This document shows, piece after piece, positions 15,457 to 26,454 of a stretch of DNA of 64,000 nt. Origin of the DNA: Nanobdellota archaeon (GTDB taxonomy: Archaea > Nanobdellota > Nanobdellia > Pacearchaeales > GW2011-AR1); NCBI GenBank assembly GCA_018830525.1, contig JAHJSH010000029.1, forward strand, positions 41,526-105,525, given 5' to 3'. Below the pieces are notes generated by a model. That model had not been told where the DNA came from and made no database searches. It was given only the letters and a program-made list of their open reading frames with translations. The first letter of the stretch is position 1. Every line of letters starts with the position of its first letter. The position numbers were made by a program, and so were the translations under genes.

Positions 15457-15518
15457 TTTTTAGATTATGCAATGGCAAAGTCCTTGCGAAATTAAAAACT
15501 AAAGTTTTGAATTTATGG
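15457..15518 (+). promoter_or_regulatory. family-1 leader cassette; TATA-like TTTTTTAAA at 15399
   Basis: TTTTAGATTATGCAATGGCAAAGTCCTTGCGAAATTAAAAACTAAAGTTTTGAATTTATGG. Confidence 0.7.
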
Positions 15519-16897
15519 TGAGCTTTTGGGTTTATGATGTTGGTTTTTTGATTCTGTTTAGTGTTTGGGTGGCTTGGTTTTTGCGTTCTAGGAAGAAATC
15601 GTTGAGTCGTGAAGGGATTATTTTTATGTATCGAACTCAATTAGGAGTTAAAGCGATTAAATATATCGGGGATAATTTCAAAAAAATGCTTCATGCGTTG
15701 AAATATGTTATTATCACTGTTGGGCTTGCTCTGATGGGGACGATGATTTGGATGTTATGGACGACGCTTTCGATTTATATTTTGCATCCAGAGATTACGA
15801 AAGTGATTAAGGCACCGCCGATTGCCCCATTGATTCCGTATTTCCCGAAGCTATTTGGGATGCAGAGTTTCTTCCCCCCGTTTTATTTCACTTATTTTAT
15901 TTTAGCTCTTGCGATTGTTGCGATTGTTCATGAGTTTAGCCACGGAATTTTTATGAGGTTGTTTAAGATTAAGATTAAGTCTACAGGGTTAGTTTTTCTT
16001 GGCCCGATTTTAGGAGCTTTTGTTGAGGAAGATCGGAAGGATTTTGAGAAGAAGACGAAAATTGAGCAGATGTCGGTTCTTGGTGCAGGGGTTTTTGCTA
16101 ATGTATTTTTCGCTTTGATATTTTATGGACTTTATGTTGCATTCTTCTTTATTTCATTTAGTGCATCGGGTTACGCGTTTAATGCTTATGCAGATGTTGC
16201 AATTCCTACTGCGAATATAACTGGTATGGAGATTCAAGGGAACCTTACAAGGATAATGACAACGAGTGGAAAAGATTTCTATGCGAATACAGCAATGCTT
16301 GAACAGATTAATCTTAGCTCATATGAATTAATCCCGGTTTATTATGATGCGCCCGCAGTAAAAATTAGGATGGAAGGTGCAATTGTGCAGATGAATGATG
16401 CGAAGATTCGAGAACAAGAAGATATTGTTACATTTATGCAAAACACTGAACCGGGAGATATGGTTAAAGTTATTACCGAAGACGAAGGGGAACAAATAGA
16501 ATATAATATTGTGCTTGGCGAGCATCCTTTAGGAAATGGACTTGGGTATTTAGGAATAGGTTATGGGCAGGTCGCGCCTAAGGGATTTATCCAAAATGCT
16601 TTGATATTTTTTATGTCGTTCAAAGATCGTTCAACTTATTATGCGCCGACTTGGGATGGGGAGTTTGTTTATTTCTTCTACCATTTACTTTGGTGGATTA
16701 TGATTATCAACTTACTCGTTGCTATTTTTAATATGTTGCCGCTTGGAATGCTTGATGGCGGGAGGTTCTTCTATCTGACAATTTGGGGAATTACTCGTTC
16801 GGAAAAAGTGGGAAAAATTGCGTCTAAGGTGATGAAGTACTTTATCTTGGCAGTCTTCGTGTTGTTGATGTATTTCTGGTTCATTAGGATTATTTAA
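15515..16897 (+). CDS. site-2 protease family (M50) membrane metalloprotease
   Basis: HEFSHG zinc motif and NMLPLGMLDGG motif; polytopic. Confidence 0.85.
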   Translation: MVSFWVYDVGFLILFSVWVAWFLRSRKKSLSREGIIFMYRTQLGVKAIKYIGDNFKKMLHALKYVIITVGLALMGTMIWMLWTTLSIYILHPEITKVIKAPPIAPLIPYFPKLFGMQSFFPPFYFTYFILALAIVAIVHEFSHGIFMRLFKIKIKSTGLVFLGPILGAFVEEDRKDFEKKTKIEQMSVLGAGVFANVFFALIFYGLYVAFFFISFSASGYAFNAYADVAIPTANITGMEIQGNLTRIMTTSGKDFYANTAMLEQINLSSYELIPVYYDAPAVKIRMEGAIVQMNDAKIREQEDIVTFMQNTEPGDMVKVITEDEGEQIEYNIVLGEHPLGNGLGYLGIGYGQVAPKGFIQNALIFFMSFKDRSTYYAPTWDGEFVYFFYHLLWWIMIINLLVAIFNMLPLGMLDGGRFFYLTIWGITRSEKVGKIASKVMKYFILAVFVLLMYFWFIRII

Positions 16898-21125: not shown

Positions 21126-21500
21126 ATGATGGAGGTAGTTGGGGGGAGAAGTTTTGGGAATGTTTTTAAAGTTAATCAGTCTATTTGTTTTATGAAAAGA
21201 AGAAGTCATCGAAGACCTCGGAGGCACAACAATCCCCACCGGAATCATTCGAAACTATTAAAGATTAGTTTTTTCACGAGAAGGCATCCTCTGGCAACAG
21301 GAGTTTTACTTATTATAGCATCTTTACTTACATTCAGATTCTCTCCAGAAATCGGGGAACTAATAGGCTTTGAGGCTGGATTTTGGATATTTCTTCTTGC
21401 ATTAGGATTAGGTATTGCGGGGATATTGGTCTTAGTGGGTTGGTGGAGAAATAATATTTCTAATTTTAATGTCCAAGCTAATCTTAAGTGGAAACATTGA
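21126..21500 (+). CDS. hypothetical membrane protein
   Basis: ORF with basic N-terminus and 2-3 hydrophobic helices; start uncertain. Confidence 0.35.
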   Translation: MMEVVGGRSFGNVFKVNQSICFMKRRSHRRPRRHNNPHRNHSKLLKISFFTRRHPLATGVLLIIASLLTFRFSPEIGELIGFEAGFWIFLLALGLGIAGILVLVGWWRNNISNFNVQANLKWKH

Positions 21501-21744
21501 ATTCTACGCCTCCACCCAGAATCGAACTGGGATTATTCACAATCATGTCTTCGGAATATGATAAATTGTCGAAGACCTAATTGCTCACCCCGAAACAGCC
21601 TGGATTTCAAGAACTTGAAATCCTACGCCCGCACCCAGAATCGAACTGGGATTATTCACAATCATGTCTTCGGAATATGATAAATTGTCGAAGACCTAAT
21701 TGCTCACCCCGAAATAGCCTGACTTTCAAGAACTTGAAATCCTA
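21501..21744 (-). repeat. two 120-bp tandem units, each re-creating the 3' part of the adjacent tRNA-Ser
   Basis: Units 21501-21620 and 21621-21740. Both contain CCCAGAATCGAACTGGGA (T arm, plus strand), a GTCTTCG/CGAAGAC hairpin and GGATTTCAAGAACTTGAAATCC. Confidence 0.9.
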
Positions 21745-21825
21745 CGCCCGCACCCAGAATCGAACTGGGATGCCCCGGAGGGCCTGGATTTCAAGTCCAG
21801 TGCAATACCATTATACGATGCGGGC
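21745..21825 (-). tRNA. tRNA-Ser (anticodon UGA) with long variable arm
   Basis: Acceptor GCCCGCA/TGCGGGC, anticodon arm CTGGA-CTTGAAA-TCCAG, variable arm GCCCTCCGGGGC, T arm CCCAG-TTCGATT-CTGGG. Confidence 0.8.
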
Positions 21826-25642: not shown

Positions 25643-25692
25643 TAGAATTTCCATTTTTTAAGGATGATGAAAAAATTATTGGGGGTAAGAGT

Positions 25693-25753
25693 TTTTAGAT
25701 TATGCAATGACAAAGTCCTTGCGAAATTAAAAACTAAAGTTTTGAATTTATGG
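25693..25753 (+). promoter_or_regulatory. family-1 leader cassette
   Basis: TTTTAGATTATGCAATGACAAAGTCCTTGCGAAATTAAAAACTAAAGTTTTGAATTTATGG, about 58 nt downstream of the TATA at 25634. Confidence 0.7.
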
Positions 25754-26454
25754 TTATGAAAAAAATCTTTGAAAGAATTTTTGATGATGAAGTGCATGCT
25801 AATTTTTTGAAGTTTGGTCGAGGAGAATATAAGAATAAATATTTACTTGAAGGAAAAAAGCAGGTGAAGAAATGGGGGATTAAAGCAGGAGCAGAGTATG
25901 CGAATCTTTTAGTCAGAAAATGTTTAGAAAAAGTTAATGGACCTATTGCTGTCACTGGAGTAATTGTTTCGACCTTGGACTTAAGGGATAAAATTAAATT
26001 TGATATTAAGAAGGTTAGTAATTTTCAGGGGGTTCGGAAGCACGTGATTGACGGTGAGGTTGAGCCGGCCCAGATTTTTGAATTGATGGATAAATATCCT
26101 AAGGCATTTTTTGCATTGACTTTTAAAAGTGATGATTTTGTTTTGAAGATTAAACCTAAGGCTCCGGCAAGCGGGAAACCAGGTAAGGAAAAAGACGAGG
26201 GACCTGTTGTAGATTTTTGTTCTCTGAAAACAGGAGATAGAAGTCTTATTGATTATTTGTTTTTCGGAGTTGGGGAGTTTAGTGAAGTTAAGATTAACCA
26301 TACTATTAATGTTACAGAGATTGTTTATCCGGAGAATATTGAAGAGTTGAAACCGGTAGAAGTTCGTGAGTTGGCAAAGAGAAAAGGTGTTGTTACTCGG
26401 ACTGCTACGGTGGACGGTGTTCAGCAAGTTAGTGAATCTGGGTTTGTTGCTTGA
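25750..26454 (+). CDS. hypothetical protein
   Basis: ORF with its start supplied by the family-1 cassette; no family recognised. Confidence 0.45.
   Translation: MVMKKIFERIFDDEVHANFLKFGRGEYKNKYLLEGKKQVKKWGIKAGAEYANLLVRKCLEKVNGPIAVTGVIVSTLDLRDKIKFDIKKVSNFQGVRKHVIDGEVEPAQIFELMDKYPKAFFALTFKSDDFVLKIKPKAPASGKPGKEKDEGPVVDFCSLKTGDRSLIDYLFFGVGEFSEVKINHTINVTEIVYPENIEELKPVEVRELAKRKGVVTRTATVDGVQQVSESGFVA

Follow-up and report, generated by a model that had tools for sequence, protein, structure and literature searches.

Why is an intact tRNA gene followed, twice over, by what looks like its own 3' half? The question is raised by a stretch of 64,000 nucleotides (nt) from a Nanobdellota archaeon (NCBI GenBank assembly GCA_018830525.1, contig JAHJSH010000029.1, positions 41,526 to 105,525; hereafter, the window), in which a gene for tRNA-Ser(UGA) on the minus strand is succeeded by two tandem units that each carry a partial copy of that tRNA around a hairpin insert. 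The original prediction, made from the letters of this DNA, had offered two explanations: (i) scars of serial integrations and excisions at a tRNA attachment (att) site or (ii) 3'-half tRNA genes for trans-splicing, or intron-containing variants. With moderate confidence, we read the units as att-type footprints, or miniature forms without an open reading frame (ORF), of DNA that recombines site-specifically into tRNA genes, duplicated here through recombination between the repeats; we infer that a recombinase made the repeats and that the hairpin and the palindrome in each unit are its recognition structures.

The general anatomy was borne out. ARAGORN and the Rfam tRNA model recognized the intact tRNA-Ser(UGA), whose acceptor stem is GCCCGCA/UGCGGGC, and Tandem Repeats Finder reported a repeat at 21500-21771 with a period of 119 nt (2.3 copies, 96% matches, score 502). 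The units had first been placed at 21740-21621 and 21620-21501 with a length of 120 bp; when numbered from the discriminator base of the tRNA, they measure 119 nt each (cf. Table 1), and positions 21506-21501 proved to be flank. Both have the same layout: behind TA come a 10-nt inverted copy, TT and a stretch that copies the anticodon loop and 3' stem, and these are followed by a variable arm in degenerate form, the hairpin insert (about 55 nt) and finally the T arm with the acceptor 3' strand. The tRNA-derived parts had thus been correctly named by the prediction, as had the GGAGGCG end of the distal copy. The inverted start, which had been described as the exact complement of the stretch behind it, is exact over its 10 nt in the distal unit (GGATTTCAAG), but its counterpart in the proximal one, CTTGAAAGTC, has two mismatches to the following 10 nt. 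Similarly, the perfect 7-bp stem GTCTTCG/CGAAGAC of the 55-nt insert is present in each unit, but the hairpin reaches beyond it, as GCAATTA/TGATTGT is stacked on that stem. The T arm TCCCAGTTCGATTCTGGG occurs three times versus 0.02 expected, and the 32-nt core of the insert occurs twice versus 0 expected. The units differ from each other at five positions, and the anticodon-stem copy of unit 1 is mutated and decaying. An assembly artefact is an unlikely source of the pair, given these five differences and the fact that an independent Logan contig (L002) breaks at what we read as the repeat branch point. Finally, the acceptor strand of the distal unit, TGGAGGC, is a genuine tRNA-Ser acceptor type in two relatives (L009 and L099), and this copy therefore appears to be derived from a functional tRNA and not from random decay.

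The second of the proposed explanations, that the units are expressed 3'-half or intron-bearing tRNA genes whose products the splicing endonuclease connects with a 5' half, was confronted with this anatomy and with a newly found 16-nt fragment upstream of the tRNA, and we regard it as extremely improbable. The host belongs to a DPANN lineage, where split tRNAs are known, and, as in the split and tri-split tRNA genes of Nanoarchaeum equitans and Caldivirga maquilingensis, tRNA pieces occur here as separate DNA segments. Furthermore, the fragment is a copy of tRNA-Ser positions 1-16, and its first 7 nt pair, with one G-U, with the TGGAGGC of the distal unit. It also amends the statement that no matching 5' half is visible in the window, albeit as a fragment only: it is the sole other 5'-like piece that we found there, and it lacks positions 17-31. 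Against the splicing explanation, besides these missing positions and the mutated anticodon-stem copy of unit 1, stands the intact tRNA-Ser(UGA) that adjoins the units. The search for bulge-helix-bulge motifs, the absence of which would speak against splicing according to the prediction, gave 7 of them versus 8.5 +/- 3.3 in shuffled sequences, and none joined sensible exons. The 10-mer at the start of a unit pairs with the unit's own first 10 nt and not with the trailer of a 5' half, while the promoter box AAATTTAAAAA, present upstream of both the 5' fragment and the tRNA, was not seen upstream of the units. As detailed below, the copy number is polymorphic between strains, and the insert is a dispersed element that also follows a tRNA-Pro gene, stands in a tRNA-free spacer and is inverted in some loci. 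Two defining features of split tRNA genes, namely the lack of an intact gene for the same tRNA and a 3'-half leader that pairs with a 5'-half trailer and forms a bulge-helix-bulge motif, were not found.

To what extent the two units require two events could be seen from contigs of other samples that match the window around the locus at 99.9-100% identity (L-numbers denote the compared loci and contigs from metagenomes and metagenome-assembled genomes [MAGs]). One of them, L017, has the tRNA and a single unit identical to unit 2, and another, L001, has a single unit in which the 5' part of unit 1 is joined to the 3' end of unit 2. The break in the Logan contig L002, directly behind GCGGGCGTAG, may be read as a repeat branch, as expected from a form with two or more units. 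Judging from these contigs, strains of the species are polymorphic for the tandem pair, which arose by recombination between repeats; since one-unit alleles exist in the same species, one such recombination suffices for the pair. Each allele state is a single recombination event away from another, which could be an unequal crossover, the deletion of DNA between units or the insertion of a sister copy for a second time, and the block of the T arm that is identical between tRNA and unit, the proposed crossover site, is 21 nt long. The hallmarks of a simple tandem duplication are all present, in that the units are arranged head to tail, are 96% identical and vary in number, but they explain the pair and not the origin of the unit. 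It follows that the tandem duplication needs no special mechanism and that the single unit is the real object to be explained. The idea of serial integrations has accordingly been narrowed: the two near-identical units of the window need not be two integrations, though mixed arrays in relatives speak for repeated insertion there. The unit array of a syntenic MAG (L006) contains a run of 100 N (428-527), which presumably marks a gap that the repeats caused in scaffolding.

To see how common such units are, we retrieved 117 metagenome loci by means of a pattern built on the conserved 5' half of such tRNA-Ser genes, and counted as a unit any copy of the last 12 nt of the tRNA, with at most one mismatch, that lay 60-340 nt downstream. 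Over all tRNA-Ser genes recovered from metagenomes and MAGs, such end-copies were present at 33 of 157 ARAGORN calls (23 of 109 after de-duplication), usually at a distance of 100-120 nt, in arrays of up to three units and with all five tRNA-Ser anticodons. An early metagenome scan for two copies of the T arm and 3' end spaced 80-110 nt apart had given no match. The modules are about 100-120 nt long and contain no ORF. In 19 of the 23 loci, the direct repeat spans the final 11-18 nt of the tRNA, and it extends beyond the discriminator by at most 3 nt in 18 of the 23 and by at most 5 nt in 20. A repeat that stops at or near the discriminator points to an att-like identity block rather than to a random target duplication. 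In a typical relative the unit has three parts: an inverted plus direct T-loop copy of the local tRNA, a hairpin of 55-65 nt and the tRNA 3' end. The first of these reads (G)AATCGAAC·GTTCGATT(C) for Ser and GGATTTGAAC·AAATCC for Pro. A second type of unit (L077, L019, L129 and L073) has other hairpins with unchanged logic of start and end, and different types are mixed within arrays of L012/L013, L026 and L073, which implies independent insertions. Williams (2002) reportedly described sublocations of integration in tRNA genes, namely the anticodon loop, the T loop and the 3' end. The copies compared here start in the anticodon loop (the window, L004 and L087), in the anticodon stem (L067) or, in most relatives, in the T loop or T stem. 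Partial tRNA genes produced by integrating elements are a familiar finding in archaea and have been discussed (PMC9897764).

The modules, which form a widespread class in Woesearchaeota-like archaea, are not specific to serine, as they also follow tRNA-Met in L086/L121 and the tRNA-Pro(UGG) gene of the window. In the latter case, the 9-nt flank TAATATTCA recurs after the module, and the hairpin within it scored 69.6 bits with the covariance model described below (R1). No empty-site allele for this unit was found in four other assemblies of the species, in all of which the 227-nt spacing from the L11 to the L37Ae gene, between which the module lies on the same strand, is identical.

Some loci suggest that tRNA ends have been exchanged. 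L012 (8008-8088, Ser-CGA) and L013 (8001-8083, Ser-UGA) have the same two downstream units on different isoacceptors; their left halves are shared and the genes beyond differ, which points either to a rearrangement mediated by homology between tRNA-Ser genes or to a MAG contig that is chimeric. Separately, L042 carries at 710-788 a tRNA-Ser(AGA) with the 5' acceptor strand GCCTCCA and a 3' strand of another type, TGCGGGC, and hence a C5·C68 mismatch; a foreign att copy that took the place of the 3' end would leave just such a tRNA. To judge by the sequences, the units common to L012 and L013, the L042 mismatch, the distal TGGAGGC and the variable content of the site would fit recombination that replaces tRNA ends. 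As for the anticodon AGA itself, it was found in 27 of the 109 distinct tRNA-Ser genes of the clade (loci L018-L134), although archaeal tRNA genes do not usually have an A at position 34.

The content of the site itself was followed through homologues of the 124-aa ORF that converges on the distal unit. At the orthologous place, L137/L138 have a canonical unit with the conserved hairpin. In L135 there is a gene for a RelE-like toxin followed by a partial copy, from T arm to 3' end and without the hairpin, which abuts the conserved ORF. At L013 we found a RelA/SpoT-domain gene and a RelE-like pseudogene, together with two units that differ in type, and L010 has a tRNA-Ser(CGA), a unit and a tRNA-Ser(UGA), with no unit after the UGA tRNA. 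L136 has no tRNA at this site. Elsewhere, ORF-bearing cassettes of 330-430 nt lie between a tRNA-Val (L087) or tRNA-Ser (L067) gene and a partial copy that begins at or near the anticodon stem-loop. On the evidence of these loci, the orthologous flank is a hotspot of variable insertion. Thus, two properties expected of att sites were found: a direct repeat of the 3' part of the tRNA that runs up to its 3' end, with the intact tRNA on one side, and an occupancy that varies both within the species, between one and two units, and among its relatives.

The hairpin insert, which we term H, was then characterized with covariance model R1. Its consensus is YGAGCA(A/T)TTCGC…variable stem-loop…ATGCAAA(G/T)TG(C/T)GAGCA, with a length of 55-65 nt and ends of the form YGARCA…GYGARCA. 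In a MAFFT alignment of 16 hairpins, 91.4% of the cells were paired versus 22-52% for slid partners, and both sides changed in 12 of 16 pairs. Among 31 covariance-model hits, 89.9% of cells were paired and 15 of 16 pairs covaried, in an alignment that leans towards structure as it was fitted to the model. These alignments indicate that H is a conserved, structurally constrained hairpin family. The model found about 30 distinct copies in 0.85 Mb, a sample biased to tRNA-Ser loci; the window has four strong ones (units 1 and 2, the tRNA-Pro module and a spacer upstream of ftsZ), i.e., three loci in 64 kb. Behind the copy upstream of ftsZ there is GGTGCGACCG, which is like the tRNA-Ser 3' end GGTGCGGGCG, so this locus may be a relic unit. 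H was without a link to a tRNA at two loci, this one and L051/L074, and was inverted relative to the tRNA at two others, L058 and L131 (three copies). G-U cells numbered 26 and A-C cells 17, a difference that does not decide the strand of a functional hairpin; the presence of both orientations and the similar numbers fit a DNA-level element. Only tRNAs were matched by Rfam, both in the window at the gathering threshold and in six related loci at E <= 1. Likeness to C/D-box, H/ACA, hammerhead or attC elements was dropped after inspection by eye, as the box sequences do not fit.

This behavior of H also suggests an origin in two layers, in which the partial tRNA 3' copies are ordinary att remnants and H is a separate mobile palindrome, similar to repetitive extragenic palindromic (REP) sequences or miniature inverted-repeat transposable elements, that was inserted later. 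H would have survived only in non-essential partial copies, since insertion into a functional tRNA would be harmful, and the unit of the window would be an att remnant that later gained H. This explanation, which we think unlikely, could account for the fact that the same subfamily of H sits at the boundary of variable arm and T stem in the window and at the T-loop end in L022/L097, where the nearest relative of the window's Ser insert is found in the ordinary T-loop frame. It is also in line with the two orientations, the copies away from tRNA genes, the YGARCA-like direct repeats and inverted arms that bound H, and the H-less partial copy in L135. However, no more than three loci of the 64 kb carry H, and almost every copy is linked to tRNA, though the sampling went through tRNA-Ser. 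Moreover, in the loci compared, no constant target-site duplication was seen at the H flanks and no associated transposase was found, and several partial copies are not contiguous across H (L026a and the tRNA-Pro module of the window). In this sample, H appears to resemble REP sequences and bacterial interspersed mosaic elements, as it is an imperfect palindrome (of 55-65 nt) that is intergenic, occurs in either orientation and combines with other hairpin motifs, whereas its copy number looks low and H is strongly tied to tRNA-derived repeats. To our knowledge, there is no transposase like the REP-associated tyrosine transposases here.

According to the integration reading, incoming DNA that carries its own copy of the tRNA 3' end would recombine site-specifically into the tRNA gene and create the attL/attR direct repeat. 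The unit would then be a displaced, non-functional 3' copy of tRNA-Ser, from anticodon loop to discriminator, interrupted by the H of about 55 nt and with its first 10 nt also present in inverted form just ahead of it, and a recombinase whose gene lies elsewhere would have moved the att core with its hairpin arms or left it behind. The two-unit state could have arisen by unequal crossover between the T arm of the tRNA and that of the unit or, equally, by a second integration of a sister copy. The hairpins may act as arm or recognition structures, the folded palindrome mimicking the duplex tRNA target by analogy with single-stranded DNA integration of the CTX-phage type.

Several observations weigh against this reading. 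In the Pfam tables of syntenic loci (+/-10 kb), no integrase or transposase was found within about 10 kb, and there is no integrase-bearing element between the direct repeats, which enclose only about 93 nt. No kilobase-sized element bounded by distant att copies was found among about 180 tRNA loci; the distant copies of tRNA ends were other tRNA-Ser genes and two small cassettes only. Pattern scans of IMG/VR viral contigs gave no convincing match to H or att, and thus none of the attP that the prediction had proposed to look for, a weak negative as mobile elements of DPANN archaea are poorly sampled. H interrupts the tRNA copy at a position that varies with the locus, whereas a simple attR copy is contiguous. 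The inverted copy of 8-10 nt is always specific to the tRNA of its locus (Pro vs Ser), and since a generic incoming element cannot carry such a copy, either selection for pairing, with tRNA-like pieces sequestered in hairpins, or a copying mechanism is needed. Finally, covariation in H and in the leader hairpins would also fit a transcribed functional RNA, and T-runs directly after the tRNA are rare where units are present (3 of 23), so that co-transcription with the tRNA is possible. The first of the two original explanations is therefore upheld in part, by the att-like block that ends near the discriminator, by the mixed arrays and by other inserted DNA in relatives, while the nearby integrase or element and the attP were not found. 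Two candidates were discarded along the way. The viral contig L145 reached 22.5 bits with R1, but it is GC-rich, apparently coding DNA without a tRNA, and was judged a chance match to be set aside as attP. The notion that the units are untranscribed because a T-run follows the tRNA was dropped after the above count.

The possibility of co-transcription leads to another explanation, in which the units and the leader are functional transcribed parts of the tRNA precursor, the hairpins and end copies serving RNA processing or stability, for instance as landmarks for RNase Z or RNase P, as hairpins that protect mRNAs downstream or as decoys that antisense segments keep folded. The leader region offers some arguments for it. 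In the window, the 5' fragment occupies the place where, in relatives, the tRNA itself begins relative to the conserved promoter box; as this box precedes the fragment, the leader is very likely transcribed. In a scan, 25 distinct loci had positions 1-14/16 of the tRNA copied some 55-90 nt upstream, as did 22 of 105 in a later de-duplicated test. In relatives these copies directly follow the promoter box and are themselves followed by a hairpin with a 3' arm that is antisense to the tRNA 5' end and covaries with the D-stem of the tRNA at the same locus. The strong covariation in H, the scarcity of T-runs behind tRNA genes with units, and the position of the tRNA-Pro unit, with its constant spacing, in front of L37Ae are also what a functional trailer would predict. 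Nevertheless, we consider this explanation decidedly unlikely: units occur at only about 20% of tRNA-Ser genes, their number differs among strains, H is inverted at some loci, unrelated genes replace the unit in close relatives and no Rfam family was matched. Furthermore, 5' fragments and 3' units occur independently of each other across loci (Fisher p = 0.37), which also ruled out a coordinated 'processing stem' of leader and trailer and a single insertion of a nested tRNA.

The leaders showed a further feature. Many tRNA-Ser leaders end with RATGATGAGC(A/T)AA directly before the tRNA, and others have TCTGAGC there, as noted among L115, L085, L081, L067, L068, L105 and L049. These ends resemble C-box/D-box or hammerhead-core strings; the Rfam scan, which covered six other related loci, gave no match to such families. 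In addition, the window contains a 63-bp direct repeat (62 of 63 positions identical), each copy of which ends in the start codon of an unrelated gene, one for an M50-type peptidase and the other a 234-aa ORF. It includes the promoter-like AAATTAAAAAC and the string ATGCAATGGCAAAG, which is like ATGCAATTGGCAAG of the tRNA-Ser leader.

The antisense segments of leaders and units could also have been made without mobile DNA, by template switching or fold-back synthesis during replication or repair at heavily transcribed tRNA genes, followed by tandem duplication. Such a process would explain the recurrent order of sense, antisense and sense copies (T loop, antisense T loop and sense T loop; 5' fragment, antisense of positions 1-13 and tRNA), the fact that the antisense part always matches the local tRNA, and the repeats of the window, which run 9-12 nt into the local flank at both tRNA-Ser and tRNA-Pro. 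It leaves unexplained, however, H itself, which is conserved across species and is unrelated to the local tRNA, being the same after Pro and Ser, as well as the end of the repeat so close to the discriminator in most loci, the mixed arrays and the cargo genes at the site. We strongly doubt, therefore, that replication or repair alone produced the units.

Returning to integration, the units can be compared with known systems. Archaeal integrative elements with integrases of the SSV type or the pNOB8/pTN3 type leave tRNA-fragment repeats as attL and attR. The present loci are like these in that direct copies of the tRNA 3' part, which end at or near the 3' end of the gene, stand behind an intact tRNA, and in the variable content of the site among relatives. 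They are unlike them in that repeats of the window type enclose about 90-110 nt without integrase or cargo, a conserved hairpin breaks up the copy, its start also stands ahead of it in inverted form, and no free attP was found. In Streptococcus, cis-mobilizable elements (CIMEs) are integrase-less, att-flanked mini-elements beside tRNA genes that are mobilized in trans and form arrays by site-specific accretion. Short att-bounded modules without a recombinase gene, placed in tandem beside a tRNA and in mixed arrays, are a shared feature; CIMEs, however, are kilobase-sized decay products of integrative and conjugative elements in bacteria, whereas the archaeal modules described here are rich in hairpins and have a length of about 100 nt. 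Hairpin-based single-strand recombination sites include attC of integrons and the folded attP of CTX phage and other integrative mobile elements exploiting Xer recombinases (IMEXs). With these, H shares imperfect hairpins with a conserved stem foot, a variable center and fixed unpaired bases; likewise, the inverted-plus-direct target copy could fold into a duplex mimic, and tandem accretion would regenerate the target. In contrast to attC, the ends of H read without R''/R' boxes (RYYYAAC/GTTRRRY), and no intI or dif site adjoins the modules. Archaeal integrons have been described in a paper that makes no mention of tRNA (PMC9668308). A text search of the open-access literature yielded no description of ORF-less, hairpin-carrying modules of about 100 nt recurring at many tRNA genes of DPANN archaea.

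In principle, an att footprint beside a tRNA gene is ordinary, and the conserved hairpin family and the target-specific palindromes are the notable part. We put forward, as a speculative and rather unlikely proposal, that the units belong to an undescribed class of ORF-less integrative modules of about 100 nt for tRNA genes in Woesearchaeota/Nanobdellota. By analogy with the systems above, the inverted-plus-direct copy of T loop or anticodon loop would fold, when single-stranded, into a mimic of the target, and H would be the arm recognized by the recombinase. With such target-mimic modules, archaea would have their own equivalent of CTX-phage/IMEX or integron attC recombination, by which the 3' (and 5') ends of tRNAs are rewritten again and again and small islands of toxin-antitoxin or defense genes are seeded. 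If the broader integration reading is true, tRNA genes of these reduced, host-dependent archaea would be active recombination sites where gene-less hairpin modules pile up, swap tRNA ends between isoacceptors and mark the entry points of cargo such as toxin-antitoxin genes. This bears on DNA exchange in DPANN genomes, whose mobile elements are almost unknown, on tRNA annotation, in which partial copies can be miscalled, and on the long-standing idea that integration at tRNA genes supplies raw material for the evolution of split and permuted tRNA genes. The covarying H family offers a searchable marker for the elements and enzymes involved.

Table 1. Positions of the tRNA genes, units, hairpins and other features discussed in the text (window coordinates)
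Feature	Position	Strand	Basis or remark
5' fragment GCCTCTATCGTATAGT, 16 nt	21880-21865	minus	copy of tRNA-Ser positions 1-16; 55 nt upstream of tRNA
Leader spacer S1	21864-21826	minus	hairpin and segment partly antisense to tRNA 5' end (…GCGAATGCAATTGGCAAG)
Intact tRNA-Ser(UGA)	21825-21745	minus	ARAGORN; Rfam tRNA model, 53.1 bits; cloverleaf as minimum free energy fold
Unit 1, 119 nt	21744-21626	minus	repeat analysis and sequence reading; begins with TA
Unit 1, imperfect palindrome	21742-21721	minus	
Unit 1, anticodon-loop/variable-arm copy	21730-21707	minus	
Unit 1, H hairpin	21706-21653	minus	R1, 44.1 bits
Unit 1, T arm and acceptor 3' strand	21651-21626	minus	TGCGGGCG
Unit 2, 119 nt	21625-21507	minus	layout as in unit 1
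Unit 2, perfect palindrome	21623-21602	minus	GGATTTCAAG-TT-CTTGAAATCC
Unit 2, H hairpin	21587-21534	minus	R1
Unit 2, T arm and end	21532-21507	minus	T arm and TGGAGGCG
Flank TAGAATTCAATGTT	21493-21506	minus	like the tRNA's own 3' flank TAGGATTTCAAGTT; overlaps end of convergent ORF
Convergent ORF, 124 aa	21126-21500	plus	conserved small membrane protein; stop codon ends at 21500; distal tRNA copy abuts it
tRNA-Pro(UGG)	8110-8036	minus	
tRNA-Pro module	8035-7931	minus	TAATATTCA…; GGATTTGAAC (antisense of Pro T loop) and AAATCC
tRNA-Pro module, H hairpin	8002-7940	minus	
tRNA-Pro module, last-9-nt copy	7939-7931	minus	GTGGCCCCA
H at tRNA-free locus	12445-12393	minus	R1, 42.8 bits; spacer between 184-aa membrane-protein ORF and ftsZ, upstream of ftsZ
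63-bp direct repeat	15457-15519 and 25692-25754	plus	62/63 identical
FtsZ-like ORF, 743 aa	10058-12289	minus	translation read by eye

The host is a Woesearchaeota-like member of the DPANN archaea. The neighbors of the locus are archaeal and include genes for the ribosomal proteins L1, P0 and P1, TYW1, an AMP-phosphorylase-like gene and a cyclophilin gene. The tRNA 3' end is common to four MAGs labelled Candidatus Woesearchaeota; one of these, L006, shares synteny with the window, with a nucleotide identity of about 70%. The comparison with L001 revealed a second point of divergence, as the sequences are 99.9% identical downstream of about 7027 in L001 and about 19040 in the window, while the DNA upstream of the L1 gene is wholly different over at least 7 kb. 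In L001, this part holds toxin-antitoxin-like genes (PIN_9/DUF2080) and acetyltransferases. The identity starts at CGAGCAAGGGCAAG, just upstream of the L1 promoter, and is preceded in L001 by a hairpin and ACGCAATGCCCGAGCA, which is like the 3' module of H and of the leaders. Finally, the FtsZ-like ORF has an apparent large insertion in the N-terminal GTPase region, with motifs that resemble those of inteins and homing endonucleases.

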